This document shows, piece after piece, positions 8,501 through 41,308 of a DNA stretch of 55,051 bases (positions are counted from its first letter, which is position 1; each line of letters begins with the position of its first letter). The DNA comes from a virus. Taxonomy: Duplodnaviria > Caudoviricetes. The notes under the pieces were generated by a model, which saw only the letters and a list, made by a program, of their open reading frames with translations, was not told the origin of the DNA and did not search any database. The stretch lies in IMG/VR virus record IMGVR_UViG_3300044262_000024, positions 1 to 55,051 of that record; one strand, 5' to 3'. The position numbers were made by a program, and so were the translations under genes.

Positions 8501-11500
8501 CGCGATGAACTGAAGGCGCTGCTGACGGCCGAAGAGTACGCCGCGGCAAACCGTTCGATCCTCGATGCGCACTTCACCAGCATGGACGTGGTGACCGGCA
8601 TGTGGGGCGCGGCCAAGCACTTGGGTTTCCACGGCGGGCGCGTGCTGGAGCCATCGGTCGGCGTCGGCAACTTCTTCGGCGCCATGCCGCAGGACGTGCG
8701 CGCCAATTCCACCCTGTTCGGCGTGGAACTGGACAACATCACCGGACAGATCGCCAAGTACCTGTACCCAAACGCGACCATTGCCACCCCGTCAGGCTTC
8801 CAGGATATTGAATTCCCGTCCGGCAGCTTCGACTTCGCCACCGGCAACCCGCCTTTCGGCGAGCAATCGCTGTACGACCGCGCGCATCCCGAGTTCCGCA
8901 GTTTCTCGATCCACCAGTTTTTCTTTGCCAAGGCGCTCGACAAGGTGCGCCCGGGCGGGATCCTGCAAATGGTGGTGTCGCGCTACCTGATGGACAGCCG
9001 CGACGCCGCCGGCTACAAGGCGCGCGAATACCTGGCGCAGCATGCCCGCCTGCTGGGCGCGATCCGCCTGCCGTACAACGCTTTCCTGTCCAACGCCAAC
9101 ACCGAAGTCGTGACCGACATCATCTTCCTGCAGAAACTGGAAGAGGGCGAGGTCGGAAATCCGGAAGCATGGACCGACATGGCCGACGTCGAGACGGTCC
9201 ACCCGAAGACGGGCGAGAAGTTCAGCTTCAGCGTCAACCGCTACTTTGCCGATCACCCGGAAATGGTCGTCGGCACGCACGCGCCGACCGGCAAGATGCG
9301 CCAGGCCAACCAGTACAACGTCGAGCCCCCGGATATGCCGCTGGCGCTGGCCATTGGTCAGGCCGTGGCCAACCTGCCGCGCGATGTTTACCGCGCCGCC
9401 GGCAAGCCGCTGGCCGAACTGGCTTCAGCAGATGCCACCGTGCCGGAGGGCACCAAGGTCTACGGCTACTACCTGGACGGCGAGACAATCATGCAGCGCC
9501 TGCCGGATTCGGCGGGGCAACGTCAGGCCCGCGCGATCGAGTTCAAGGACGGCATGGCGCCCAAGCGCGCCGCCCGCATGATCCAGATTCGGGACACGCT
9601 GCGCAGCCTGATGCGTCTGGAGTTGTCGGAAGAGGCGACCGATGGCCACATCAAGGTCATGCGTGCCACCCTCAATGAGCAGTACGACGCCTTCCGCAAG
9701 ACATTCGGCTACATCAACCAGCCGTCCAACCGCCGCGCGTTCGCCGATGATCCGGACCTGCCGCTGTTGGAATCGCTTGAACCGAAGTTCGATCCCGGGC
9801 TGGGCTCAGAAGCGGCCAAGAAGCGCGGCGAGCCGGCCCGGAAGCCGAGCGCCGAGAAGGCCGACATTTTCAGCAAGCGCGTGCTGCAGCCGCAACATGA
9901 AGTGAAGTCGCTGGAGGCCCAGCAGTACGGGCATCTGCAATCCAATGTCGCCATGCAGGACCGGCTGGCCATGTACCAGCGTGCGCCGCAGAAGATGCGC
10001 GAGCAGCTTGAGTGGGTGCTCCCGTTCAAGGAGGCGGCGGCAGCCCATCCGGCCAAGCCGTTCAGCTACACGACCGCCAATGGCAAGGCGATCGACGACA
10101 TCAAGAACGTCGCCACGCCCATTACCGAGGCCTTTGTGCTGGCGGCCAAGGGAAAGGCCGGCGAGGACGTGACTGCCGGCGAGTATCGCGGCATGAAGAT
10201 CCGCTTCCAGCGCGTGCATGGCTCCATCACGGTCGTCATGCTGAAAGGTGAGCATTCGCTGTTTGTGGGCGATTACACGATGGACGACAAGTTTTCGCCG
10301 TCCGGGCTGTTCACCCGCATCGAGAACGCCATCAGCAAACTGGACGAGCGCGAGAAAGAGGTCCGCGCCGAGGCTGATCGCAGGCTGGCCGAGATCCCGA
10401 AACTGGAAGCCGAGATTGCCAAGCCGTTCGCCAAGGAGGCCGACCTGAAGGCGGCCCGCCAGAAACACCGCGAAACCGTGTCGAAGCTGGCCAAGGCCGG
10501 CGGCGGGGTGGAGTTGTCTCCGGAAATGAAGGAGGACCTGAAGCTGGCGCTGGTGCAGCGGATGCTCGAAGGGCGCAATGCCTCCGGCGATACGTCATTC
10601 GGGTTCGTGGAAGCCGCTGGGGGCTTTACCCCCATCCTTCAACGAGAACTCGATAACGTCATCAAACGGGTCTCCGCCCGCTGGGAACGTCCGAAGGGTT
10701 TTGAGGGCGGGCGTATCACCGCCGTCGACACGCCTGCCGGGCTCCCGGTGTCGATTCTCCGCGCGGCCGCGGCGCAGAATATTCCGCAGGATGAAATCAA
10801 GGGCGTTCTTCACAATGGGCATGTCTACCTCGTCCGGGAGAATTTGAAGGATGCGGCTGACGCCGAACTGACGATCTTCCATGAGGCTTACGGCCATCTT
10901 GGGGCCCGGCTTTACTTCGGCCCCGACGCCAAGGCCGTCGAAAGGGCCATGCTGTCCATCTGGAGAAGGGTAGGCGACCTGGATGGCGTGCGCAACATGG
11001 CCGAGCGGTTCGGCGTGCTGCGCGACGTTGAGCCGTACATCAAGGCGCTGGCCACGGCCGATATGTCGCCCATCGCCAAGCAGAAGATCATCGTCGATGA
11101 ACTGCTGGCGCATGTGGCTGGACGCGGCGACTTCACCCTGGCCGAGCAGTTGAAGGCCTACGTCGGCGCGCTGCGCATCGCATTGCGGAATGCCGCCAAG
11201 GCGATGGGGCTGGATCGTTTGGCCGAGTCCATAAGCCGGTTCACGGACAGTGAATTGCTGTGGACGCTGAAAGGGATGCGGGACGCTGTTGTGAGCGGGA
11301 AGACCGGCAAGGGCGACGGCACGTTGTTTGCCAGGGCGGGCCAGACCGAAACCGAAGCCAGCAAGAAGCCGAAGAAGATAAGCGACAGCACTTACAGCTA
11401 TCGTGGATTTAGGATTAAAAAGGATGTTTCTCCGTCATCAACGGGGTGGAGCAACACCTACACCATTAGGAATGACGGCAAGAAGGTCAGTGTTGATACG

Positions 11501-27692: not shown

Positions 27693-28507
27693 ACTACTAC
27701 GAAAGACACCTGGGCGACTACGCCAAGGACACGGCGCATCTTTCCATGCTTGAGCATGGCGCGTATGGGCTGCTGCTGGATCGCTACTACGCGACCGAGT
27801 GCGGCATTCCAGCAGACCAGGCGCATCGCCTTGCAAGGGCCAGGACGAAGGAAGAAAAGCAGGCTGTCGATTCAGTCCTGGCCGAGTTCTTCAAGTTGGT
27901 GGATGGCGTGTGGATCAACAACCGGGCCAGCGACGAGATAACCAAAGCCCAAAGCAAGATCAAAGCGGCACAGGAAAACGGCAAGCGTGGCGGGCGTCCA
28001 AAGACGAACCAAACAGAAACCCAAGAGAAACCCAGTGGGTTATTTGTGGGTTCGGATTCGGAAACCGAAACGAAAGCTCACCAGACACCAGACACCAGAC
28101 ACCAAGAAACCCTATCGCCTACGGCTCTGTCAGGTTCGACCGAAAAGCCGGTCGAACCTGACCCTCTGCCGTGCCCGGTCGAGAAAATCATTGAGGCGTA
28201 CCACGAGGCCATGCCGCTCAACCCTGCATGCAAGGTTCTCAACGATTCGCGCAAGCGGTCGATCCGGCAGCGGTGGCGCGAGGCATCCAGGATGCAGGCC
28301 CAGCCGTTCGGGTATTCGACACAGCTTGATGGCCTGATGGCCTGGAGGCGGTTCTTCGAGGTTTGCGCCGAGTCTGATTTCCTAACTGGCCGGGTGCCGG
28401 GGCGCAACGGAGCGCCGCCATTCCTGGCTGACGTCGACTTTCTATTTTCGCCTTCAGGCTTTGCCAAGGTGCTTGAAAACAAATATCACCGCGAGGTGAT
28501 GGCATGA
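27689..28507 (+). CDS. Replication initiator (YdaU/DUF1376-like)
   Basis: MNYYERHLGDYAKDTAHLSMLEHGAY.LLLD.YY..NGKRGGRP. Confidence 0.85.
   Translation: MNYYERHLGDYAKDTAHLSMLEHGAYGLLLDRYYATECGIPADQAHRLARARTKEEKQAVDSVLAEFFKLVDGVWINNRASDEITKAQSKIKAAQENGKRGGRPKTNQTETQEKPSGLFVGSDSETETKAHQTPDTRHQETLSPTALSGSTEKPVEPDPLPCPVEKIIEAYHEAMPLNPACKVLNDSRKRSIRQRWREASRMQAQPFGYSTQLDGLMAWRRFFEVCAESDFLTGRVPGRNGAPPFLADVDFLFSPSGFAKVLENKYHREVMA
28005..28112. repeat. Putative origin: AACCCA/TGGGTT iterons and (CACCAGA)3.7 tandem repeat inside the initiator gene
   Basis: Tandem repeat at 28079-28104; lambdoid origins lie within the initiator gene. Confidence 0.5.
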
Positions 28508-29868
28508 ACGCCCCTCTCGACTTTGAAGACCTGGGCGCCCGCCTGCCCCCGCATCACGCCGAGTCCGAGCAGTCGGTGCTGGGCGGCCTGCTGCAGGACA
28601 ACACGGCGATGGACCGCATCGACCTGGCCGAGTCGGATTTCTACGCCCATGACCATCGGCTGATCTGGAAAGCAATCGCCAGCCTGATCGACGCCGGCAA
28701 GCCGGCCGATGTGATTACCGTGGCCGAAGCCTTGGAGGCCGCCGGCGAACTGGATCGCGTCGGCGGCCTGTCCTACGTCGTGGCCCTGTCGGCGAACACA
28801 CCGAGCGCAGCGAACGTGCGCAGCTACGCCAAGACGGTGAAGGACCGGGCCGTGTTGCGGCGGCTGGCCGAAGCCGGGACGCGCATCGCGGACATGGCCT
28901 ACGCTGGCGGCGATGCGTCCGAGTCCGTGGCCCAAGCGCAGCAGGTTGTAATGGAACTGGACAGCACCGAGGCGGCACAGGAATCCATGAGCCTGCGCGA
29001 TGCGCTGAAGGCGATGGTCGAACGGGTGGATGACGCATTCCACGGCAGGAACGCGGCCACGCCGACCGGGTTTACCGACCTAGACGCGAAGATCGTCGGA
29101 CTGGAGAAGGGCGACGTGATCGTTGTTGCCGGACGCCCGAGCATGGGAAAGACCGCATTCGCCATGCAGATCGCCGAGCAGGTGAGCGAGGACGGTCCGG
29201 TGCAGGTGTTCAGCCTTGAAATGGGCGCCGAGGCGCTATCAATGCGGATGGCCGCTGGGGTCGGCAAGATCGACCTGATGAAGATGAGGACCGGGCAACT
29301 CAACGACGACGATTGGGGTCGCCTGACCTATGCGCTGGGCAAACTGAACAGCCGGCCGCTTTACATCGACGACCGATCCAGCCTGTCGGTGGCACAGATC
29401 CGCGCCCGCGCTCGCCAAACCAAGCGCAAGCACGGTCTGGGCCTGGTGGTGATCGACTACATCGGCCTGATCGACGCGCCAGGCGAGAACCGGGCCGCCG
29501 CTGTTGGCGCGGTGAGCCGCAGCATCAAGGCGATGGCGCGCGAGTTGGCGGTGCCGGTGATCCTGTTGTGCCAACTCAATCGACTTGTGACTGGCCGCAC
29601 CGACAAGCGGCCGGTGTTGTCAGACCTGCGTGAGTCGGGCGCCATCGAGCAAGACGCCGATCTGATCCTGCTGCTGCATCGGGATGATTACTACAACCCC
29701 GACAGCCAATACAAGGGCGTGGCCGAGTGCATCATCGGCAAGCAGCGCAACGGTCCGACCGGCATCGTGCCGCTTGCATTCGACGCCGAGAGCGCGCGCT
29801 TCGGTAACTTCGCCGGACGCTACGCGCCGGAAGCGCAGGCCAAGCCGGTCAAGAAGGGGTTTGCATGA
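28504..29868 (+). CDS. dnaB: Replicative DNA helicase
   Basis: AEQ-like SVLGGLL, AGRPSMGKT Walker A, FSLEM, IDYIGL, QLNR, DLRESGAIEQDAD, KQRNGP. Confidence 0.95.
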   Translation: MNAPLDFEDLGARLPPHHAESEQSVLGGLLQDNTAMDRIDLAESDFYAHDHRLIWKAIASLIDAGKPADVITVAEALEAAGELDRVGGLSYVVALSANTPSAANVRSYAKTVKDRAVLRRLAEAGTRIADMAYAGGDASESVAQAQQVVMELDSTEAAQESMSLRDALKAMVERVDDAFHGRNAATPTGFTDLDAKIVGLEKGDVIVVAGRPSMGKTAFAMQIAEQVSEDGPVQVFSLEMGAEALSMRMAAGVGKIDLMKMRTGQLNDDDWGRLTYALGKLNSRPLYIDDRSSLSVAQIRARARQTKRKHGLGLVVIDYIGLIDAPGENRAAAVGAVSRSIKAMARELAVPVILLCQLNRLVTGRTDKRPVLSDLRESGAIEQDADLILLLHRDDYYNPDSQYKGVAECIIGKQRNGPTGIVPLAFDAESARFGNFAGRYAPEAQAKPVKKGFA

Positions 29869-32147: not shown

Positions 32148-32349
32148 GCAACATCAATGAATTGATGTTGCGGCAAGAGGGCGCGGTTGGCGCTGACGTC
32201 GCTCCGGTATGGAAACCTGGCCAACCCGCGAGCGACGCCACCTGTGCAGCCACCGGCGCTGGTGGCGACGTGTTGACCCGAGAGACATCGGCAGCGATGT
32301 ACTAGGGTTTTTGATAGTGCCAGCGGGTGAGCCGGTTTACGCGGGCAGC

Positions 32350-32535
32350 ATGAGCGAACTAGATGCAGAAGAAACCGAATGCGTGCACATGTGCCTTGAT
32401 GATGCGCTTGTGCCGCGTGCAGATGAGAACGGCGCAATATTTTCGCTGTGGGGACGAGTTAAGCGTTTCAAGTACGGCGGGCCAAACGACGACAACGGGA
32501 TGCAATTACCGACCCCAGGCAACGAAGGCGCATAA
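32350..32535 (+). CDS. Hypothetical protein whose stop lies in the first attC-like core
   Basis: ECVHMCLDD..VPR..FSLWGRV; stop TAA within GCATAAC; start uncertain. Confidence 0.5.
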   Translation: MSELDAEETECVHMCLDDALVPRADENGAIFSLWGRVKRFKYGGPNDDNGMQLPTPGNEGA

Positions 32536-32593
32536 CGGCAAAGTTAAGGCCGACGCGCTTTAGCGCGGTCGGGCCTTGAACGTAGAGTTGGGC
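32530..32593 (-). repeat. attC-like site 1 (64 bp)
   Basis: Minus strand GCCCAAC-tctac-GTTCAAGG..CCTTAAC-tttgcc-GTTATGC: canonical R''/5/L''(extra base)/L'/6/R' layout. Confidence 0.88.
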
Positions 32594-32611
32594 AACGAAC
32601 AGGAGCGAAGA

Positions 32612-32845
32612 ATGGAACTGACAGACGTTTTACGAGGGGGCCGCCAATGTGATGAGGACGGCACTGAAATAATCATGAGCCGGGAAGCGTGCGTGGTAGC
32701 AGCAGATTTGATTGAGCGGCAACAGAAGGCACTGGCAACGCTGGCGAAATACTTTACCGGCGGCAACCACATCCAGGTTGACCAGGCGACGATCAAGGCC
32801 GCCGACTTCTGGAGTATTACGGGGCTGTCGGTGCCCAACGCATAG
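32612..32845 (+). CDS. Cassette 1 hypothetical protein
   Basis: AGGAG SD; ends ..VPNA* inside the next site. Confidence 0.7.
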   Translation: MELTDVLRGGRQCDEDGTEIIMSREACVVAADLIERQQKALATLAKYFTGGNHIQVDQATIKAADFWSITGLSVPNA

Positions 32846-32879
32846 TTTAGGCCGCGCCCGCTAGAGCAAAGTGTTGGGC
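32833..32879 (-). repeat. attC-like site 2 (short, degenerate or chimeric)
   Basis: GCCCAAC..CCCGCTAGAGCAAAGT-GTTGGGC; right half nearly identical to site 7. Confidence 0.55.
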
Positions 32880-33031
32880 GCGTAAGTTATTGAAAACACA
32901 GGCGACCTTAAAGAATAGACAGCTGAACTGGGTCTAAAGGTTGACAAATGTTCGAATCAGCAAGAAAGCGAGGTTGACAAAATTCCAGAAGTGCAATGAG
33001 TTAAACGACAGCGGACATAAGAGGAAAGACG

Positions 33032-33307
33032 ATGGAACGAGAAAAGCGGTATTTTGTGATAAAGCTGACCGACGCGGCAAAGTACCTGACGCCAACGCAA
33101 AGTAGCAGGCTGCAAGAAATGGGTGAGCAGATCAACGAACTTCGGGCAGCAGACGGGAAGCCGCCGATGCACGGTGTTTTTGTGGAGCACGACTGGCCGG
33201 AATATGAGCCGACGTGGCAGGCCATTGAACGGCGCATGGACGCGGTGCCGAACGCTGAAATAACCGGGCGCACGCTGGCCCAAAACGAAGCCGAACCGCT
33301 CGATTAA
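33032..33307 (+). CDS. Cassette 2 conserved phage protein
   Basis: MEREKRYFVIKL.D..VEHDWPEYEPTW.AIE.R; reads through site 3. Confidence 0.75.
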   Translation: MEREKRYFVIKLTDAAKYLTPTQSSRLQEMGEQINELRAADGKPPMHGVFVEHDWPEYEPTWQAIERRMDAVPNAEITGRTLAQNEAEPLD

Positions 33308-33317
33308 CGTGTTAGCC
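33247..33317 (-). repeat. attC-like site 3 (degenerate centre)
   Basis: GCCGAAC-gctgaa-ATAACCGG..CCGCTCGATT-aacgt-GTTAGCC. Confidence 0.6.
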
Positions 33318-33358
33318 GACTCACGTTAAAGGTCGGCACTTGTTGGAGATAAAACCCA

Positions 33359-33505
33359 ATGGAAACTGTAATCAACGAAGCAATCAAAGCACTTGCCGAA
33401 AAGTCCAAGGCAGCACCGGCCCACGAAGTCATGCACCTTACGCAAGCCGCGCTGAATCTGGCGCACACGCTACAGGTCAAGAAGCAGACCGAAGCCACGA
33501 AGTAA
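33359..33505 (+). CDS. Cassette 3 48-aa helical protein (not in the ORF track)
   Basis: GGAG SD; METVINEAIKALAEKSKAAPAHEVMHLTQAALNLAHTLQVKKQTEATK. Confidence 0.65.
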   Translation: METVINEAIKALAEKSKAAPAHEVMHLTQAALNLAHTLQVKKQTEATK

Positions 33506-33536
33506 TGAACAGTCGCCACTGGCTGATGCTGGTGGT

Positions 33537-33600
33537 GGCTAACGATTAAATTAACAGGCTGGCCGCTTGCGGACAGTCCCGCTAGAACGCCGTGTTAGGC
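33537..33600 (-). repeat. attC-like site 4 (64 bp)
   Basis: GGCTAAC..GGCTGGCCGC-tt-GCGGACAGTCC..GTTAGGC. Confidence 0.7.
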
Positions 33601-33622
33601 GTGAACCTGAAAGGAGAATGAA

Positions 33623-33820
33623 ATGTTTGGAATTATCGGTAGCTTGACTAAGGCAGTTGTCGGCGTGGTTGTTGAAGCCCCGATTGCAATTGCGGCAGAC
33701 GTGATGACGCTCGGAGGAACGCTTACCGACAAAAACCAGTGCGGCGGCGAAACCTACACGGAAACCGCATTGAAAGGCGTGATGAAGAACTTGGAAAATG
33801 CGACCAAGCCCGACGCCTAA
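33623..33820 (+). CDS. Cassette 4 conserved small phage protein
   Basis: AAGGAG SD; SL.KA.VG.V.E.P.A..ADV.TLGG.LTD; stop in GCCTAAC. Confidence 0.75.
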   Translation: MFGIIGSLTKAVVGVVVEAPIAIAADVMTLGGTLTDKNQCGGETYTETALKGVMKNLENATKPDA

Positions 33821-33958
33821 CAAACAGGTAAGGGGCTGCCCGCACAACGAACAGGAGCAAGAGCGATGACCATAGAGACACCACAAACCGAAAACGAAGC
33901 CGCTGGCGGGCAGTCCCGCGCAGCCGAAGGCGGAGCGAACTTGACCGCCGTGTTGGGC
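33815..33958 (-). repeat. attC-like site 5 (144 bp) with the next gene's RBS and start codon in its loop
   Basis: GCCTAAC-aaacag-GTAAGGGGCTGCCCG..CGGGCAGTCCC..CTTGAC-cgccgt-GTTGGGC. Confidence 0.7.
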
Positions 33959-34156
33959 GCACTGGCTGACCAGTTTGAGTGCCACGCGCTCAGCCGGAGC
34001 ATTGACGATATTGAGGCGGCAGGCCGGGCCATGCGTGATGCCAAGGCCGAGGTTGAGCGGCTGCGCGCATCGCTGGCAGAGGCACTGGAGGTAGGGAGCC
34101 ACCTGATGTCTGCGGCAGCCTACGAGCGGGCACGAAAGCTGGTGCCCAACGGCTGA
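33866..34156 (+). CDS. Cassette 5 hypothetical protein
   Basis: AGGAG SD inside site 5; ends ..VPNG*. Confidence 0.65.
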   Translation: MTIETPQTENEAAGGQSRAAEGGANLTAVLGALADQFECHALSRSIDDIEAAGRAMRDAKAEVERLRASLAEALEVGSHLMSAAAYERARKLVPNG

Positions 34157-34207
34157 ATTGAGGGGCCGCGCGCTTTTGCGCGGTCCCGCTCGGATGATGT
34201 GTTGTGC
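34144..34207 (-). repeat. attC-like site 6 (64 bp)
   Basis: GCCCAAC-ggctga-ATTGAGGGGCCGCGCGC-tttt-GCGCGGTCCCGCTCGGAT-gatgt-GTTGTGC. Confidence 0.85.
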
Positions 34208-34228
34208 CCCTGCCAAACGGAGAGAGAA

Positions 34229-34513
34229 ATGGACTTGGTTTTACCACTGAAGGGCGAGTATTTCGACCAGATAAAGGCCGGGGTAAAGATTTACGAATAC
34301 CGGCTTTGCACGCTGTATTGGAAAAAGCGGATCGAGGGCCGGAGATACGACAACGTGATTTTGACGCGCGGGTACCCGAAGCGTACAGACACCGAGCGCC
34401 GCCTGGTGGTGCCGTGGAGGGGGTGGCGAATGATGGTGATTTCACACCCCCATTTCGGGCCTGACCCGGTATCGGTGTACGCGATAGAGGTGGGGCACAA
34501 CGGCAACGCTTAG
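34229..34513 (+). CDS. Cassette 6 ASCH-domain protein
   Basis: L.LPLKGEYFDQIKAG.K..EYRL...YW.KR..GR.YD....GYP. Confidence 0.85.
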   Translation: MDLVLPLKGEYFDQIKAGVKIYEYRLCTLYWKKRIEGRRYDNVILTRGYPKRTDTERRLVVPWRGWRMMVISHPHFGPDPVSVYAIEVGHNGNA

Positions 34514-34556
34514 GGGACGCCGCTTGCGGCGGTCCCGCTAGAGCAAAGTGTTGTGC
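34495..34556 (-). repeat. attC-like site 7 (62 bp)
   Basis: GCACAAC-ggcaac-GCTTAGGGGACGCCGC-tt-GCGGCGGTCCCGCTAGAGC-aaagt-GTTGTGC. Confidence 0.85.
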
Positions 34557-34573
34557 GACTGGACGGAGAGAAC

Positions 34574-34804
34574 ATGAGAAAGACAAGATTTACAGCAACA
34601 ATGGCCGCGCTGGCTGTGGCATTCGGGACGGAAGCCGAAATGTTTGACCTTACCGCGCGGCGCGGAAAGACGCTTCCTTCGTACTACCCGAAGTGCACCG
34701 ATAGCGAGAGCGCGGCACGGCTGGCAGCGGCGGAGGAAAAGCGAAAGCGCCGAGCCAAGAAGTTGAAGGCGCACAACGGCAAAGATCAGGCCGACGCCGC
34801 GTAG
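34574..34804 (+). CDS. Cassette 7 basic protein
   Basis: GGAGAG SD; RLAAAEEKRKRRA; reads into site 8. Confidence 0.65.
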   Translation: MRKTRFTATMAALAVAFGTEAEMFDLTARRGKTLPSYYPKCTDSESAARLAAAEEKRKRRAKKLKAHNGKDQADAA

Positions 34805-34835
34805 CGGCGGTCGCGCCTGGATCGATGTGTTAGAG
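34771..34835 (-). repeat. attC-like site 8 (65 bp)
   Basis: GCACAAC-ggcaaa-GATCAGGCCGACGCCGC-gta-GCGGCGGTCGCGCCTGGATC-gatgt-GTTAGAG. Confidence 0.85.
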
Positions 34836-34858
34836 CGCTGGATCAACTAGGAGAGAAC

Positions 34859-35071
34859 ATGACTTTCGATGAGCACTGGCAAAAAGTGAGAAACGCAAAC
34901 CCGAAATTGGCGGATGACCACTTTGCAAGAGCGCTGGCCGAAGCGGCATGGGAAGCCGCAACCAAGGCAGAGCGCGAGGCGTGCTGCCGAGCGATAGATG
35001 CAATAGACGATGGCGAAGCGCCAGAATACAGAGCGTGCCAAGAGGCGATCATGGCGTGCTCTAACGGCTGA
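34859..35071 (+). CDS. Cassette 8 hypothetical protein
   Basis: AGGAGAG SD; AWEAA..AEREAC..I motif common in phage small proteins; ends SNG*. Confidence 0.7.
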   Translation: MTFDEHWQKVRNANPKLADDHFARALAEAAWEAATKAEREACCRAIDAIDDGEAPEYRACQEAIMACSNG

Positions 35072-35122
35072 ATTCAGGGGCGGGCGGCTTTTCGCCCGTC
35101 CCGCTGGAATGACGTGTTATGC
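35059..35122 (-). repeat. attC-like site 9 (64 bp)
   Basis: CTCTAAC-ggctga-ATTCAGGGGCGGGCG..CGCCCGTCCCGCTGGAAT-gacgt-GTTATGC. Confidence 0.85.
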
Positions 35123-35142
35123 CACAAATTTAAGAGAGAACG

Positions 35143-35460
35143 ATGAACGAAAAAAGCTGTGTTGGCTGCAAATATCTTTACACCCAAGGGCACGGTTACA
35201 GCAACTACACCTGGGAGGAAACCCGCGTTGAATGCGCCAAAGATAAAAACCCGAACCTACCAAGCGATGAGCCTTACGACTGGAACGAGAAAGACGACAA
35301 CTGGCCCGCCACAAACGCCAGCAGGTGCGAGCTTTACGCCACGGGAGAGAAGGTTTGCCTCGATGTGGATGGAGAGAATGGCCCGGCAGATGAAACGACC
35401 GACGAGGAAGCGATTGCCGCGATTTGCGAGCACAGCGGGCGTGGGCGGAATGGGGCATAA
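35143..35460 (+). CDS. Cassette 9 Cys-rich acidic protein
   Basis: SCVGCKYL..GYSNYT..C; stop in GCATAAC. Confidence 0.7.
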   Translation: MNEKSCVGCKYLYTQGHGYSNYTWEETRVECAKDKNPNLPSDEPYDWNEKDDNWPATNASRCELYATGEKVCLDVDGENGPADETTDEEAIAAICEHSGRGRNGA

Positions 35461-35519
35461 CGGCTGAATTGAGGGGCCGCGCGCTTTTTGCGCGGTCCCG
35501 CTCGGATGATGTGTTGTGC
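35455..35519 (-). repeat. attC-like site 10 (65 bp), near-identical to site 6
   Basis: Differs from 34144-34207 only in the left core and one extra loop T. Confidence 0.88.
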
Positions 35520-35539
35520 CCAGGAGATTGAGGAAACCG

Positions 35540-36136
35540 ATGACCGTAGCCGTACTTTTTGCCAGAGCAGACAGCAACTACAAGGCGCTGGACTGCGACG
35601 TGTGGGACGAGCAGCGCGACGCCCGCCGCTGGCCGGGGGGCTGCCCGGTTGTGGCGCACCCGCCATGCAGGGCGTGGGGCAGGCTGCGGCACTTCGCAAA
35701 GCCACGGGACGACGAGAAAGACCTTGCGCGGTTTGCTGTGGCACAGGTGCGAAAGTGGGGCGGGGTTTTGGAACACCCGGAGAGCTCGCAATTGTGGCAA
35801 GACCAAGGACTGCCGCCGCCAGGTAAGAAGGACGATTTTGGGGGGTGGACTTTGCCAGTGCATCAATTCTGGTGGGGCCACCGGGCGCAGAAAAAGACGT
35901 GGCTTTATGTGGTTGGGTGCGAACCGAGAGAACTGCCGCCGATGCCTTTGCGCCTTGGTGTAAGCGATTGCGTGATACGGCTGGACAAGCGCAGGCCGGA
36001 CGGAACGCACATTAGGAAAGGCGACCACGACTGGCGAGAGCCACTAGGGCCAGCCGAAAGAGAACACACGCCCCCGGCGCTGGCGGAATGGCTGATTGAG
36101 CTGGCAGCACGCTGCAAGGGGCACAACCAGGATTAG
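35540..36136 (+). CDS. Cassette 10 minimal cytosine-C5 methyltransferase-like protein
   Basis: VAVLF..; VAHPPCRAW (PC motif); VLEHP..S; Q.WWGH...K.TWL. Confidence 0.6.
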   Translation: MTVAVLFARADSNYKALDCDVWDEQRDARRWPGGCPVVAHPPCRAWGRLRHFAKPRDDEKDLARFAVAQVRKWGGVLEHPESSQLWQDQGLPPPGKKDDFGGWTLPVHQFWWGHRAQKKTWLYVVGCEPRELPPMPLRLGVSDCVIRLDKRRPDGTHIRKGDHDWREPLGPAEREHTPPALAEWLIELAARCKGHNQD

Positions 36137-36210
36137 CCTCCACGTCCGATAACCTCGCCCACGCCAGATTATCAGACACGGCGCATAAGCTGGAAACTTG
36201 TCAGATAACG
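36121..36210 (-). other. attI-like terminal half-site with repeated GTCnGATAA(C/T) boxes
   Basis: Core GCACAAC without a partner hairpin; boxes at 36144-53, 36168-77 (inverted) and 36200-09. Confidence 0.5.
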
Positions 36211-36309
36211 TGCCTAGCACTGGCGCGGCTTGCGGCGGTGAAACTGGCAGGGAATGGCTTGATAACGAAACCGGAAAGGCGTCACGAAGGCCCATGTACC
36301 ATAAACCAC

Positions 36310-36363
36310 TTGACGCGAGACTCTTTCTTCTTGAACATCGAGGCTGTGGGGCAAGGTGCGCCC
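36310..36363 (+). promoter_or_regulatory. Putative late promoter with GGGCAAnnTGCGCCC element (copy 1)
   Basis: TTGACG-17 nt-GAACAT, then GGGCAAGGTGCGCCC at 36349-63. Confidence 0.55.
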
Positions 36364-36399
36364 AAAGCGCACGCCCTACAGGCAACACGGGTGGTGATT

Positions 36400-36745
36400 G
36401 GTGTTGTCCCCAGACGAGTCCGTGAAAGCCGGGCAGGAGGCGAAAGCCGACGACGAAACAGCTATGGGGGCGCGCCAGTCACCAGCCGTGTTGGTGAATG
36501 CGTAGGCTGATGCGCAGCGACAGCAAGCCGGCGCCGATCTAAAACAGCAATGCCGGGGCGAAAGCCTTGGAGGAAGGGGCTGATCGGACCCACCTGACCC
36601 CGCTGGGGACATGGTTGTATGCCAAAGCCGGAGATCGCAGCACCGGCCACCAGCAAGCCACCCTTCGGGGTGGCTTTTTTATTGCACATCTGAAAGTCGG
36701 GCTTACCGCAGATGAGGCCAACGACGGGCGAGAGCCCAGCAGGCA
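36400..36745 (+). ncRNA. Structured non-coding late leader (hammerhead-core-like motifs and a multi-stem element)
   Basis: No convincing ORF; GNRA-capped stems; CAGAnGA-stem-GA(A/G)A motifs; stem TTGGTG..CACCAG. Confidence 0.4.
36656..36682 (+). terminator. Rho-independent terminator
   Basis: AGCCACCC-ttcg-GGGTGGCT followed by a T run. Confidence 0.85.
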
Positions 36746-36809
36746 GCGGGTAGCTTGAGGCTGGCACCCTCTTAGTCGAGTCACTTAGCCATACACACAC
36801 GAAGCATCG

Positions 36810-36837
36810 GCCCGCCCATTGAGGCGGGCTTTTTTAT
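36810..36837 (+). terminator. Rho-independent terminator before terS
   Basis: GCCCGCC-cattga-GGCGGGC-TTTTTT. Confidence 0.8.
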
Positions 36838-36850
36838 GCCTGGAGAAACC

Positions 36851-37453
36851 ATGCCGGAACAGAAGAAAGCCCCGGATTGGGATCGCATCGAGATTGACTA
36901 TCGCGCCGGCATCAAGACGCTGCGCGAGATCGCTGACGAGCATGGCATTACCCATGGCGCCATCAACAAGCGCGCCAAGCGTGACGGCTGGGTCCGCGAC
37001 CTGGCTGAGAAGATCCGCGCCAAAGCGAAAGAGAAGGTATCCAAGAGCGAGGTATCCAAAGAGGTATCCAGTGAGCGCCTGGCTACCGAGCGGGAGATTA
37101 TCGAGGTCGAATCCGAGGTTCAGGCCCGCATCGAGATCGCACATCGCCGCGACATCACCAAGGCCAGGTCGTTGGCGATGAGCCTGCTGGATGAGCTCGG
37201 GCATCAGGTTGCAAACCCTGAACTGTACGAGCGGCTTGGCGAGTTGTTGCGCAAGGAAGACGACAAAGGCGTCGACAGGCTGAACGACATCTACCACAAG
37301 GTTGTCGGGTTCGGCGGACGCTCCACGAACATGAAGCAACTGGCTGACACCTTGAAGGTGTTGGTTGACCTTGAGCGCAAGGTCTACGGCATTGAATCAC
37401 GCGCAGCTACAGGCGGCGGCCTTGAAGAACTGCTTGGTAAGCTGGATGAATGA
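36851..37453 (+). CDS. Terminase small subunit
   Basis: PDWDRIE.DYRAG..TLREIA..HGITHGAI.KRAKR.GW.RDL HTH; upstream of terL. Confidence 0.85.
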   Translation: MPEQKKAPDWDRIEIDYRAGIKTLREIADEHGITHGAINKRAKRDGWVRDLAEKIRAKAKEKVSKSEVSKEVSSERLATEREIIEVESEVQARIEIAHRRDITKARSLAMSLLDELGHQVANPELYERLGELLRKEDDKGVDRLNDIYHKVVGFGGRSTNMKQLADTLKVLVDLERKVYGIESRAATGGGLEELLGKLDE

Positions 37454-38951
37454 CAACGAAAAGCTGCGCCGGCTTCGGCTGTTGCGCACGCAGTTCAAGC
37501 AGTACGCGCCGCTGGCGCTGCGCATACGGGACAAGGCTGGCCGCATCGTGCCGTTTGCGCTCAACAAGGCACAGGAAGCGCTCGACACGGCGATCAATGA
37601 CCAGCTTGCAACGATCGGGCGGGTCCGGATCATTGTGTTGAAAGGGCGCCAGCAGGGAATCAGTACCTATACCGAGGGGCGGTTCTACTGGCGCACATCG
37701 ATGCAGTTCGGTAAGACGGCCTTCATCCTCACTCATGAGGACCGTGCGACACAAAACCTGTTCGGCATGGCGAAGCTCTATCACGACAGCGTGCCGCCAG
37801 CCTTGAAGCCGAACACCAGCGCGGCAAACGCCAACGAATTGCAGTTTGATCGCCTGGCCAGTCGCTATGCGGTCGGCACGGCGCGCACCAAGGGTACCGG
37901 GCGCGGCTTCACGGTGCACTACTTCCACGGCTCGGAGGTGGCGTTTTGGGCGAATGCGGCCGAGCACTTGGCTGGTTTGGGGCAGGCGATCCCGGACGAG
38001 CCCGGCACCGAGGTAATCCTGGAAAGCACGGCCAACGGTGTCGGCAACGTGTTCTACAGCATGGTGCAGGACGCGCAACGCGGGATTGGTGATTACAAGC
38101 TGGTATTCATTCCGTGGTTCTGGCAACCGGAATACCGCTCTGACGTGCCGAGCGACTTCGTGATGGACGCCGAAGAGGCGGCCTATGCGGAACGCTACGG
38201 GCTGGACGCCGGGCAGATGGTATGGCGCCGGCGCAAGATCCAGACGGATTTCAGGGGCGACGTGGCGCTGTTCGATCAGGAATACCCAGCAACCCCGGCC
38301 CTGGCGTTCCGCGCGGCGGCCAGCGGGTCGTTTATTGGCCTCGATTTGGTCGACGCCGGAATGGACACAACGGTCACAGAAGACGCCTTGGCCCCCAAGA
38401 TCATGGGCGTGGACCCGGCTGAATATGGCGATGACGCCACGGCAATCGTGAAGCGTCTTGGGCGCAAGGTTTACCCGATCGAGCGCCATTACAAGCGTGG
38501 TCCGATGGAGGTCGCCGGGATCGTGGCGCGACGCGCCGACGAGTGGGGCCCCGACGCCATCAATGTGGACTGCACGGGCATCGGCTCCGGTGTGGCGGAT
38601 CGCCTGATCGAGCTTGGCTACCCGGTCAACCGTGTGCATTTCGGCGAGAGCGCGATCGAAAAAGACCAGTACGGCATCCGCAAGGATGAAATGTGGGGCG
38701 AAATGAAGCGCTGGCTCGAAGACCTGCCGAACGAACTTCCGCGTGATGATGTGCTGGCCGCTGATCTGGTGGGCCCGCAGTACACCTACGACAGTTCCAG
38801 GCGCCTGCGCATCGAGAGCAAGGAAAAGATGAAAGCGCGCGGCATCCAGTCTCCGGACAGCGGGGACGCGCTGGCGCTGACGTTTGCCGTGCGTATCAAT
38901 CGGAATGAAGAGCGCGCCCCATCGAGACGATATAACTGGAGGGTTGGTTGA
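37446..38951 (+). CDS. Terminase large subunit
   Basis: LKGRQQGIST Walker A, HGSEVAFW, LESTANG, nuclease MGVDPA..GDD, SPDSGDAL. Confidence 0.95.
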   Translation: MNDNEKLRRLRLLRTQFKQYAPLALRIRDKAGRIVPFALNKAQEALDTAINDQLATIGRVRIIVLKGRQQGISTYTEGRFYWRTSMQFGKTAFILTHEDRATQNLFGMAKLYHDSVPPALKPNTSAANANELQFDRLASRYAVGTARTKGTGRGFTVHYFHGSEVAFWANAAEHLAGLGQAIPDEPGTEVILESTANGVGNVFYSMVQDAQRGIGDYKLVFIPWFWQPEYRSDVPSDFVMDAEEAAYAERYGLDAGQMVWRRRKIQTDFRGDVALFDQEYPATPALAFRAAASGSFIGLDLVDAGMDTTVTEDALAPKIMGVDPAEYGDDATAIVKRLGRKVYPIERHYKRGPMEVAGIVARRADEWGPDAINVDCTGIGSGVADRLIELGYPVNRVHFGESAIEKDQYGIRKDEMWGEMKRWLEDLPNELPRDDVLAADLVGPQYTYDSSRRLRIESKEKMKARGIQSPDSGDALALTFAVRINRNEERAPSRRYNWRVG

Positions 38952-39160: not shown

Positions 39161-41308
39161 ATGGCCGACAGCAACGCCGTAAAGGAACTGACGCTATCCG
39201 AGTGGCAGGACATTCTCGGGGAGATCCAGCAGCAGCCGGCCTGGCGCCGCGACGCCGACACCGAGGCCGACTACTACGACGGCAATCAACTGGATTCCGA
39301 GACGCTGCAGGCCATGCAAGAGCTTGGCATGGCGCCGATCATCGAGAACCTGATCGCGCCGTCGATCGATTCTGTGCTCGGTATGGAGGCGAAGAACCGC
39401 CTCGACTGGCGCGTGACCAGCCAGGGCAGCAACAAGCACGCCGAGATCGCCGAGGCGATCAACGAAAAGCTGAACGAAGCCGAGCGCGAGTCGAAGGCTG
39501 ACCGCGCGTGCGCCGACGCCTACGCGGCTCAGTGCAAGGTGGGCGCCGGCTGGGTGACGGTCGGCCATGAGCATGATCCGTTCAAGTACCTGCACCGCGC
39601 CGAGTATGTGCACCGCAACGAAGTGTTCTGGGACTGGAATTCGCGCGAGCCGGACCTGTCCGACGCCCGCTATCTGGTCAGGAAGCGCTGGCATGACGTC
39701 GATGTACTGCAGGTGGCTTTCCCTAAGCAGGCCGATCTAATCAAGAACGCCGGCTACGGCTGGGCGACGACCGACATTGAGACCATGCTCGACGGCGGCC
39801 AGTCGACGGGCTTGAGCCGCGGCTACGCCGAGGAACGGGCATGGACACTGCTGGAGCACGAATGGCGCCAGCTTTACCGCCGCCGCCTGTGTCTGTCCGA
39901 GGTCTGGTATCGGCGCTGGGTGCGTATCAAGGTGCTGCGCGCGCCGGATGGCCGTGTGGTCGAGTTTGACCCCGATAACTTCGACCATCAGGTCGCGGTG
40001 CAGTCCGGCATGGTCCAGCTACAGGAGGCGATGACGTCGAAGGTGCGGCTGTCGTGGTGGATCGGCCCGCACAAACTGGCGGACATCCCCAACCCATACG
40101 GCCACGGCAAGATCCCCTACGTGCCGTTCTTCGGCAAGCGCGAAGACCTGACCGGCGTGCCGTATGGCCTGATCCGGCCGATGAAGAGCCTGCAGGACGA
40201 GATCAACGCCCGCAATACCAAGATGCAGTGGCTGCTGGTGGCCAAGCGGGTAACCATGACCCGGGGCGTCGCCGACGTCAACACGACCCGCAACGAGGCG
40301 GCGCGTCCGGACGCGGTGCACGTGCTGGACCCCGCCAAGATGCGCGATGGCGGCGTGTTCAAGGTCGAGTCCGACTTCACCCTCAACCAGCAGCAGTATC
40401 AGGCGCTGGTGGACAAGCGCGAGTCGCTGAAGAACGTCGCCGGCATCTACAAGGCGTTCGAGGGGCAGAACGGCAACGCCACGTCGGGGCGCGCGATCGA
40501 CAGCCTGGTCGACCAGTCGACGCAGACGCTGGCCGAGATCAACGACAATTTCCGCTTTGCCCGGGCGGCGGTGGGCGACCTGCTGATGTCGAACGTGACC
40601 GAAGAGATTGGCCAGATGGAGACCGATGTCGAGGTCAAGGGAGCCTTCGCCACCGGCGCCAAGGTTATCAAGCTGAACCAGCGCGCCCAGGATGAGCAGG
40701 GCCGTGAATTCCTCAACAACGACCTGCAGCGCGCCCGCCTCAAGGTGGCGCTGTCCGATGTGCCGTCGACAGCCAGCTACCGCAAGCAGCGCTTCATGCT
40801 GCTGTCCGAGCTTGGCAAGAGCCTGCCGCCGAACCTGCAGGCGATCATGTTGCCCTACATCGTGGCCGCATCCGACGAGCCCGAGCGCGACGTGATCGTG
40901 AAGGAACTGCGCAAGGCGCTGGGGCAGGCCAGCAACGAGCCGGCGAAGACGCCAGAAGAGCAGGCCGAGCGGGATGCGGCCGATGCGCAGGCGCGTGAAA
41001 TGGCCGCATTGCAGAAGCGCCTGGCTGACATGCAGTTCCGCGAGCTCGCGGCCAAGGTCGAGAAGATGGAGGCGGAGACCGACAAGCTGCTGCGCGAAAT
41101 CCATAAGCCCGTCGCCGTCGAGGTCGCCGAGATCAATGCCGATAGCCGCAAGGACCTGGCCGCCATGAACCACGGTGCCGCGACCGAGAGCCGGCTGCAG
41201 ACGGCGGCCATTGCGCAACTGACCAACGAGCGACAGGAAGAAGCCGGCGAGCACAACGACAGCCCAGCCGAAGAGGCGCGAGAAAAAACGCTTGAAACAT
41301 CCGAATAG
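39161..41308 (+). CDS. Portal protein (podovirus type)
   Basis: 715 aa after terL; YYDGNQ..NLIAP.ID.VLG.E..PYVPF..YGLIR..QDEIN..SGRAI. Confidence 0.9.
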   Translation: MADSNAVKELTLSEWQDILGEIQQQPAWRRDADTEADYYDGNQLDSETLQAMQELGMAPIIENLIAPSIDSVLGMEAKNRLDWRVTSQGSNKHAEIAEAINEKLNEAERESKADRACADAYAAQCKVGAGWVTVGHEHDPFKYLHRAEYVHRNEVFWDWNSREPDLSDARYLVRKRWHDVDVLQVAFPKQADLIKNAGYGWATTDIETMLDGGQSTGLSRGYAEERAWTLLEHEWRQLYRRRLCLSEVWYRRWVRIKVLRAPDGRVVEFDPDNFDHQVAVQSGMVQLQEAMTSKVRLSWWIGPHKLADIPNPYGHGKIPYVPFFGKREDLTGVPYGLIRPMKSLQDEINARNTKMQWLLVAKRVTMTRGVADVNTTRNEAARPDAVHVLDPAKMRDGGVFKVESDFTLNQQQYQALVDKRESLKNVAGIYKAFEGQNGNATSGRAIDSLVDQSTQTLAEINDNFRFARAAVGDLLMSNVTEEIGQMETDVEVKGAFATGAKVIKLNQRAQDEQGREFLNNDLQRARLKVALSDVPSTASYRKQRFMLLSELGKSLPPNLQAIMLPYIVAASDEPERDVIVKELRKALGQASNEPAKTPEEQAERDAADAQAREMAALQKRLADMQFRELAAKVEKMEAETDKLLREIHKPVAVEVAEINADSRKDLAAMNHGAATESRLQTAAIAQLTNERQEEAGEHNDSPAEEAREKTLETSE

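Follow-up and report, generated by a model that had tools for sequence, protein, structure and literature searches.

The element described here lies in the IMG/VR virus record IMGVR_UViG_3300044262_000024, which was analysed over its whole length of 55,051 nucleotides (nt) and is referred to below as the window. Positions 32530-36122 comprise ten integron-type attC sites (S1 to S10) and a terminal half-site, interleaved with ten cassette open reading frames (ORFs; g1 to g10, see the table). This array forms the end of a co-directional block of + strand ORFs that starts at approximately 26.5 kb, and occupies the accessory region of a P22-like phage, between its replication and packaging genes. 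Each site runs from an xxxxAAC box through an imperfect hairpin to a GTTxxxx box, with the RYYYAAC ... GTTRRRY consensus and imperfectly complementary R boxes that define attC sites. A first-pass annotation of the sequence had claimed that the polarity of these sites is inverted relative to every cassette gene.

The identity of the sites as attC was evaluated by repeat, fold and covariance analysis. A 25-nt pattern representing the 3′ half of the sites gave seven matches with two or fewer mismatches, all on the + strand and all within the array, compared with an expectation of 0.22 from shuffled sequences, none of which (0/100) reached seven. For structural comparison we aligned 29 sites, seven from the window and 22 from other viral contigs, chosen from 46 regular-expression matches by discarding duplicates, variants that overlapped and matches in which no stem could be seen. 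The AAC and GTT triplets were invariant in 29/29 sites. When helices were drawn with three bulges on the 3′ arm, 90.8% of the cells were paired, versus 31.6-44.3% with slid partners, and 78 cells showed changes on both sides of a pair, versus 23.9 in shuffles (0/500 reached 78); such changes occurred in 10 of the 19 base pairs. A covariance model built from the + strand sites (R1) found nine matches in the window, all on the + strand between 32530 and 35519, with scores of 18.8-79.7 bits, while the same sites on the - strand scored no more than 12.4 bits and the remainder of the window no more than 11.8 bits. Seven of the nine matches belonged to the seed of the model, with S2 and S3 outside it; of S5, R1 aligned only the 3′ part (33918-33958, 8.5 bits). 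Clusters of attC sites lacking integron integrases (CALINs) consist of two or more attC sites with no intI nearby, same-strand sites being grouped when under 4 kb separates them (Cury et al. 2016). The window holds nine same-strand model matches within 3 kb in a record from which intI is absent. These results confirm that the window sites are integron-type attC sites.

In attC sites, the bottom strand carries 5′-RYYYAAC in R′, and its extrahelical bases lie on the opposite arm near L″, at G16, optionally at position 20, and at T23/24, a stem of 6 bp separating the first from the last (Nivina et al. 2016). When both strands were folded as DNA to locate these bases, all + strand bulges fell on the 3′ arm, opposite the AAC triplet. 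With numbering that starts at the 3′ terminus of the GTT box, S4, S6, S7, S9 and S10 have unpaired G16, G20 and T24, separated by 3+3 pairs. In a manual reading of the folds, S1 (G16/G23/G27) and S8 (G16/C22/G27) kept G16 with other spacings. The + strand was slightly more stable in all nine folded sites. Read on the - strand, S1 consists of GCCCAAC, 5 nt, GTTCAAGG (one extra base), CCTTAAC, 6 nt and GTTATGC; this sequence and the folds bear out the proposal that the canonical order of R″, 5 bp, L″ with its extra base, L′, 6 bp and R′ is found on that strand.

To calibrate strand assignment we used the class 1 integron of plasmid R46, in which intI1 is encoded on the - strand and blaOXA-2, aadA1 and orfD on the + strand. 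R1 found 4/4 R46 attC sites on the - strand, antisense to the genes (33.3-36.5 bits, E values of 7e-8 to 5e-7), and the + (sense) strand scored no more than 6.9 bits. In seven bacterial loci (L208, L263, L261, L187, L213, L236 and L249) an IntI homologue was likewise encoded on the strand matched by R1, 3′ of the sites. The layout of the bulges, together with the calibration against R46 and the IntI loci, therefore identifies the window + strand as the bottom strand.

The cassette genes are encoded on this same strand. On the + strand, the ATG of each of the ten ORFs is preceded by a Shine-Dalgarno-like motif, and four of the ORFs (g2, g4, g6 and g10) have PHROG matches there. A codon-likelihood test trained on the long genes of the window phage, which called 36/38 held-out pieces correctly, assigned 8/8 inter-site intervals to the + strand. 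A comparison of longest ORFs miscalled 4/8 window intervals in this GC-rich DNA, and the codon and ribosome-binding-site tests were used in its place. Across the viral sites, a ribosome-binding site and start followed the right box on the bottom strand in 83/115 cases and the left box on the top strand in 1/118; the same test on bacterial contigs gave 8/104 for the bottom strand versus 26/106 for the top strand. Homologues of g6 and g10 are also annotated as genes in cultured phages. In the classical layout the coding strand is the attC top strand, whereas here the bottom strand codes in 8/8 intervals. Every cassette ORF is thus encoded on the strand that is the bottom strand of all the attC sites, a layout that mirrors the classical cassette, and both the inverted polarity and the uniform + strand coding that had been noted at the outset are upheld by the bulges, the R46 calibration, the codon calls, the PHROG matches and the ten starts.

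The cut made by integron integrases falls within the 5′ AAC box of the bottom strand, between A and C. In the window each right box pairs, across the intervening gene and not within its own site, with the left box of the site that follows, perfectly at 9/10 junctions and at 6/7 positions in the remaining one: the S2 left box (GCCCAAC) complements the S1 right box, the S3 right box (GTTAGCC) complements the S4 left box (GGCTAAC), and the two S5 boxes, GCCTAAC and GTTGGGC, complement S4 and S6, respectively. Across viral arrays, box complementarity held across the gene at 75/95 junctions versus 24/129 for the two boxes of one site. As this complementarity is symmetric, it gives no polarity by itself. 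The ends of the arrays differ, with a lone xxxxAAC box forming the right end of 17/18 viral arrays. The window agrees with the earlier observation of a full site on the left and a half-site on the right, since S1 is complete, with no complementary GTTATGC box seen upstream, and the right end has only the orphan GCACAAC box, after which R1 found no attC body in its scan of the window.

We also examined which box travels with a site body. Where two sites on different contigs had bodies of 85% identity or more, the right 4-nt box alone was shared with the body in 24 viral pairs and the left alone in three; in bacterial contigs these counts were 58 and 15. The right flank alone was conserved in three similar-body pairs and the left flank alone in none, while 99/111 pairs shared neither flank. 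Nine distinct contigs with a common backbone gene start all diverge exactly at an xxxxAAC box, 11-12 nt ahead of the shared ribosome-binding site, with different sequence upstream. Where homologous genes were compared, the site upstream was better conserved in a gene pair from L107 and L142 (99% identical; upstream body 91%, downstream 55%) and in the g6 pair with L181 (100% and 65%). As only four such pairs had both sites outside syntenic contigs (upstream/downstream 91/55, 100/65, 69/62 and 73/76), this comparison was judged too small, and the box-linkage count was added. The ribosome-binding site and start of g5 sit in the loop of S5, so that exchange at the right box would split g5. Counting ORF starts inside long sites did not discriminate between strands (13 sense versus 16 antisense among 24 long viral sites); only single cases in which the ribosome-binding site is strong are notable.

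On the sense strand, these data place the crossover within the left box, at AA|C, which makes the mobile unit attC then gene. The first-pass annotation had arrived at the same unit, and had pointed to the junctions in variant arrays as a check on it; in the variant contigs the junctions fall at the left AAC box, and site bodies mostly keep the right box. Each unit accordingly runs from the C of the AAC box through the body of the attC site, its GTTxxxx box and the ORF with its ribosome-binding site to xxxxAA of the box that follows. Further units would enter at the right end (36122), beside the packaging genes, and S1 would be the distal end.

In S6, S9, S10 and several other loci the body opens with C-GGC-TGA after the AAC box, so that the upstream ORF ends in AAC GGC TGA and its stop codon is supplied by the attC of the next cassette. 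On circularisation, the stop codon would come from the gene's own attC instead.

To determine whether this arrangement recurs, viral loci were collected with one sequence pattern, which gave 81 loci, about 28 of them real-looking by eye. A mis-spaced control pattern (one extra N) gave 25 viral matches, none with attC structure. R1 found 121 sites in 32/81 viral loci and 109 sites in 43/100 bacterial loci. After exclusion of two redundant loci, intervals below 120 or above 1500 nt, and two minority-strand matches, viral arrays coded on the bottom strand in 69/79 intervals and 22/24 loci, whereas bacterial arrays coded on the top strand in 48/56 intervals, with 18/20 loci canonical. The bacterial loci with a sense-strand majority (2/20) were L200 and L253, both short contigs, which may be phage contigs binned with bacteria. 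L200, a 1.8-kb contig binned in a Saccharibacteria metagenome-assembled genome, carries a g10 homologue (38% identical). The 29 viral records with arrays included seven that are at least 90% complete, four with direct terminal repeats and one with an IntI above the family cut-off. A further 120 metagenome loci were searched by nhmmer, which in a benchmark recovered 137/234 model matches, none on the opposite strand; loci of this attC family were mirror-oriented in 39 cases and canonical in 37, with two ties. Pfam matches in the flanks of ten metagenome loci, too few to count, agreed with the split between phages and bacteria: one sense-type locus is flanked by the phage genes ERF and Gp157, and antisense-type loci are flanked by a TIR protein and an ABC transporter. 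One sense-type metagenome locus, L345, lies between an IntI-like gene and a flagellin gene. R1 had no match in 1.01 Mb from 80 loci related by large terminase. These relatives have neither arrays nor homologues of the genes upstream of the array in the window; no empty site could be defined.

An integrase lies next to such a flipped array in L115 and L208. The L115 contig, which has Baseplate_J and Mtd genes, is a fragment of a phage, and its IntI (474.7 bits, above the family cut-off) is encoded directly after the orphan box of the array, on the same strand. The L115 array has sense-strand ORFs throughout, including a Dam methyltransferase cassette. The same layout occurs in L208, a 186-kb contig of a bacterial metagenome-assembled genome whose IntI is 85.6% identical to that of L115. 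In both, the geometry of intI and attC is canonical, as in R46, and it is the ORFs that are flipped, running towards intI and against the usual direction of the integron promoter Pc. Decayed intI genes were found in other relatives, as a pseudogene in the L120 contig and an N-terminal remnant in the L146 contig. Two further bacterial genomes have IntI genes that sit at the ends of contigs, where no adjacent array could be read. In a complete integron intI adjoins the array, and the insertion end has an attI site and a Pc promoter; intI is absent from the window, and the right end of its array is a lone box followed by non-coding DNA that shows no likeness to the flank of the L115 group.

As a separate observation on L115, the stretch 3077-5290 has an Mtd-like gene (PF21916) followed by a reverse transcriptase (RT)-like ORF that stops at the first attC site, a layout that resembles a diversity-generating retroelement. 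A possible reading is that the ORF is a reverse transcriptase interrupted when the complete integron inserted at a site other than attI; a Pfam search of the RT-like fragment gave no match.

The features of the window array and its surroundings are listed in the table.

Features of the attC array and neighbouring genes in the window
Feature	Position	Strand	Evidence and remarks
Source record, linear, 55,051 bp	Entire window		IMG/VR record; estimated completeness 94%
DnaB helicase	28504-29868		
g0, final backbone ORF ahead of array	32350-32535	+	ORF and start listing; TAA stop within S1 left box; no family match
S1, full attC, distal (left) array end	32530-32593	+	R1 46.4 bits on +; folds with 3′-arm bulges; left box GCATAAC, right box GTTGGGC
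g1, cassette ORF, 77 aa	32612-32845	+	Shine-Dalgarno-like motif and ATG; codon test +; no family match
S2, short attC-like site, 47 nt, without apical stem	32833-32879	+	R1 36.4 bits, outside seed
g2, cassette ORF, 91 aa, after 152-nt spacer	33032-33307	+	phrog_7810, E 2.9e-22
S3, degenerate attC-like site in g2 3′ end	33247-33317	+	R1 18.8 bits, E 0.018, outside seed
g3, cassette ORF, 48 aa	33359-33505	+	Shine-Dalgarno-like motif and ATG; weak sub-threshold ZapA match only
S4, attC	33537-33600	+	R1 62.6 bits
g4, cassette ORF, 65 aa	33623-33820	+	phrog_33676, E 4e-9; homologue 65% identical in L148/L169
S5, atypical long attC-like site, 144 nt, extra inserts	33815-33958	+	Hand-delimited from boxes; folded
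g5, cassette ORF, 96 aa	33866-34156	+	N-terminal part encoded by S5 3′ arm; stretch 74% identical in L179
S6, attC	34144-34207	+	R1 75.6 bits; body 100% identical to L181 site, 98% to S10
g6, cassette ORF, 94 aa	34229-34513	+	phrog_625, E 3.4e-34; homologues in 330 GenBank phage records
S7, attC	34495-34556	+	R1 65 bits
g7, cassette ORF, 76 aa	34574-34804	+	Start listing; codon test
S8, attC	34771-34835	+	R1 46.6 bits
g8, cassette ORF, 70 aa	34859-35071	+	Start listing; codon test
S9, attC	35059-35122	+	R1 79.7 bits
g9, cassette ORF, 105 aa	35143-35460	+	Start listing; codon test
S10, attC	35455-35519	+	R1 69.4 bits; body 100% identical to L134, L144 and L123 sites, where flanks differ
g10, last cassette ORF, 198 aa	35540-36136	+	phrog_12600, E 1.2e-77
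Orphan left box GCACAAC, half-site, insertion-proximal (right) array end	36116-36122	+	Complementary to S10 right box GTTGTGC
Two terminator-like hairpins	36655-36676 and 36809-36830	+	Between array and putative small terminase gene; pattern matches only
Large ORF	37365-38951		Weak terminase match
P22-type portal	39161-41308		

The window also encodes a CI-like repressor, a YqaJ exonuclease and a lysozyme, and a single ORF of 3951 aa (2549-14404, +) is presumed to be a giant virion or injected protein. Pfam and NCBIfam searches of the cassette proteins gave no match that suggests a function, and a blastn search of the array against GenBank phages matched nothing. A homologue of g10 (60% identical) is found in Pseudomonas phage Meltemi (L300, OR683407) at 13043-13639, directly upstream of the large terminase gene, with which it has a stop/start overlap; it is an ordinary gene without attC, and its place in the genome corresponds to that of g10 in the window. 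Upstream of g0, a weak attC-like match at 32219-32278 (+; 11.2 bits, E 1.5), with boxes GGCCAAC/GTTGACC that do not pair with those of S1 and a GCCACC/GGTGGC stem, may be a relic site. The spacer of cassette 2 (32880-33031) contains a direct repeat of GGTTGACAAA at about 32939 and 32972 that could be an internal promoter or operator, although a consensus promoter scan did not list it; promoter matches were no more numerous than in shuffled sequence. The array is separated from the putative small terminase gene by a non-coding stretch of approximately 700 nt (36137-36835), which contains three GATAAC/GATTATC motifs at about 36150-36225 together with the two terminator-like hairpins, both strong, and may hold a packaging site or a small RNA; an Rfam search of this stretch gave only a chance-level match.

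Taken as a whole, we consider it very probable that the locus is a true integron-type array in a phage genome, formally a CALIN, with mirror-oriented cassettes and attC-then-gene units. The most likely mechanism would be IntI-catalysed exchange of the bottom strand, with an integrase that may act in trans from the host and that in some relatives is phage-encoded, directly downstream of and co-oriented with the array. The cassette genes would be read by the phage's own rightward transcription. We infer IntI catalysis, present-day mobility and this source of transcription from the arrangement of the sequence. The first-pass annotation had likewise attributed expression to a phage operon rather than to Pc; the absence of intI, the co-directional ORFs, the hairpins that follow the array and the ORFs of L115 and L208, which run against the usual Pc direction, are consistent with that part of its claim, and transcription itself stays a prediction. 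Such cassettes are predicted to be silent if captured at a bacterial attI, as would follow from orientation-specific insertion (Nivina et al. 2016).

Several observations weigh against this interpretation. The record contains no tyrosine recombinase of any family and no integron integrase (PF00589, TIGR02249), and a tblastn search with the L115 IntI found no IntI remnant in the window; since the record is 94% complete, an integrase could sit in the missing part. S2, S3 and S5 are atypical, being degenerate, short or overlong, so part of the array may be immobile. The strand calls depend on a codon model trained on the window phage, and the codon test was correct for just 2/3 intervals of R46. 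In the viral set 10/79 intervals and 2/24 loci were called canonical, and as intervals in one array are non-independent, the Fisher and binomial P values overstate the support. A single sequence pattern was used to find the related arrays, which therefore stand for one attC sequence family. Finally, 8/18 viral arrays have a complementary box on the left side as well, which we attribute to undetected weaker sites.

Some of these points would also fit a fossil array, in which the attC sites are true and their polarity is as described, but the whole is the relic of a phage integron that lost intI and takes part in no exchange now. The lack of intI in the window, the degenerate S2, S3 and S5 and the decay of intI in the L120 and L146 contigs are what a relic would leave. 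However, seven sites keep their helices and bulges (46-80 bits), 9/10 box pairs across the genes are perfect, and bodies 98-100% identical recur beside unrelated genes elsewhere, which argues for recent turnover of the family; we therefore regard a fossil as unlikely, though deserving serious consideration. Still less probable is that the modules are shuffled without an integron integrase, by phage homologous recombination between near-identical bodies of 50-60 nt. The bodies are indeed up to 100% identical within and between contigs and the phage encodes a YqaJ-type exonuclease, but such shuffling would account neither for the complementarity of the four variable box bases on the two sides of each gene nor for the lone box at a single end, and would not set the backbone junctions exactly at AAC in nine distinct contigs. 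The three bulges conserved with covariation are instead expected where a protein recognizes a folded strand.

It is very improbable that the likeness to attC is merely convergent and that the repeats serve the phage as RNA or DNA elements, for instance as operators, terminators or processing sites. As hairpins between genes of an operon they have the position expected of such elements, and attC sites have been proposed to act as weak terminators (Qi et al. 2023, PMC9892861). Nevertheless, a model built from them finds all four R46 sites, at the E values given above, and arrays beside IntI genes in bacterial contigs, while no Rfam family matches (best E 0.48) and no T-run follows the hairpins inside the array. 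A canonical orientation after all, with the real genes on the - strand and spurious + strand ORFs, is scarcely credible, for although long antisense ORFs exist (e.g. 33551-34216 (-), 221 aa) and the crude longest-ORF count favours the - strand in 4/8 window intervals, the antisense ORFs run across the sites and the PHROG matches, the codon calls, the viral starts and the g6 and g10 homologues in cultured phages all point to the + strand.

Returning to the mirror-oriented array as the preferred explanation, its broader meaning lies in how cassette genes are expressed. Integron theory holds that strand-selective recombination orients promoterless genes for Pc. A class of flipped arrays, mostly in phages, would mean that one recombination chemistry supports a further logic of expression, in which reading starts at the distal end and proceeds to the insertion end, and towards intI in arrays that have it. 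We can only tentatively propose, with the balance of our judgement slightly short of even, that phages keep their own mirror-image cassette pool, in which ordinary accessory genes, made into cassettes by the attachment of a common 5′ attC on the bottom strand, are moved between phages by host or phage IntI and are expressed from the phage operon only, being silent in a bacterial integron, and vice versa. This predicts an expression barrier between the bacterial and phage pools despite common attC sites and integrases, and bacterial integrons could be silent stores of phage genes. Annotation tools that take a cassette to be a gene plus its downstream attC would mis-assign all genes in such arrays. 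As near-identical bodies lie beside unrelated genes, the arrays may also show cassette genesis in progress. How cassettes arise is a long-open question; identical attC bodies flank unrelated genes here, and the homologues of g6 and g10 are tightly packed ordinary genes in cultured phages, so comparison with the attC-flanked state bears on this question and could make cassette origin testable.

The window array shares many properties with known systems. Like the class 1 attC sites of R46 (aadA1, blaOXA-2, orfD), its sites have RYYYAAC/GTTRRRY boxes, L boxes with an unpaired G16, bulges on the same arm, a length of 57-70 nt and boxes complementary across the cassette; the R46 sites are matched by R1 at 33-36 bits. 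The difference is one of direction, as the bottom strand in R46 is antisense to the genes and attC follows the gene, whereas in the window the bottom strand is sense and attC precedes the gene. Clusters of attC sites without an integrase in phage genomes, as in the window, have already been published as phage CALINs and integrons by Qi et al. (2023, PMC9892861), who noted methyltransferase cassettes and found that IntI1 recombined 5/6 tested phage attC sites. Section 3.4 of that paper describes cassette direction as typical of bacteria and divergent in one phage, and a systematic inversion of ORFs relative to attC is not reported in that section. A full-text literature search found no paper on arrays with bottom-strand ORFs, supplementary tables, which could bear on the point, being outside that search; within the literature searched, phage attC clusters are thus established and the flipped polarity is without report.

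Near-identical bodies beside unrelated genes and many small ORFs of unknown function are also typical of sedentary chromosomal integrons, from which the window array differs in its lack of intI, its phage host and its ORFs on the bottom strand. For 25/30 chromosomal integrons, Loot et al. (2017) place the bottom strand on the leading-strand template. If replication in the window runs rightward from the replication genes, as gene order and GC skew suggest, the bottom strand may instead be the lagging-strand template, which would favour its folding. The "reverse" integrons described in Treponema (Cury et al. 2016; Tansirichaiya et al. 2016) resemble L115 and L208 in that intI and the cassette genes are co-directional; in reverse integrons, however, intI is flipped relative to attC and lies upstream of the cassettes, whereas in L115 and L208 the ORFs are flipped and intI lies downstream of the genes. 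The window, which has no intI, and L115 and L208, with intI on the bottom strand 3′ of the array, therefore fall outside that class. Some toxin-antitoxin cassettes in Vibrio arrays are inverted. In such inverted chromosomal cassettes, as in the window, the ORF is antisense to the direction of the array. Toxin-antitoxin cassettes have their own promoter (Richard et al. 2024). Inverted chromosomal cassettes are a minority within canonical arrays, whereas in the window type whole arrays are inverted and would rely on read-through from the phage operon.

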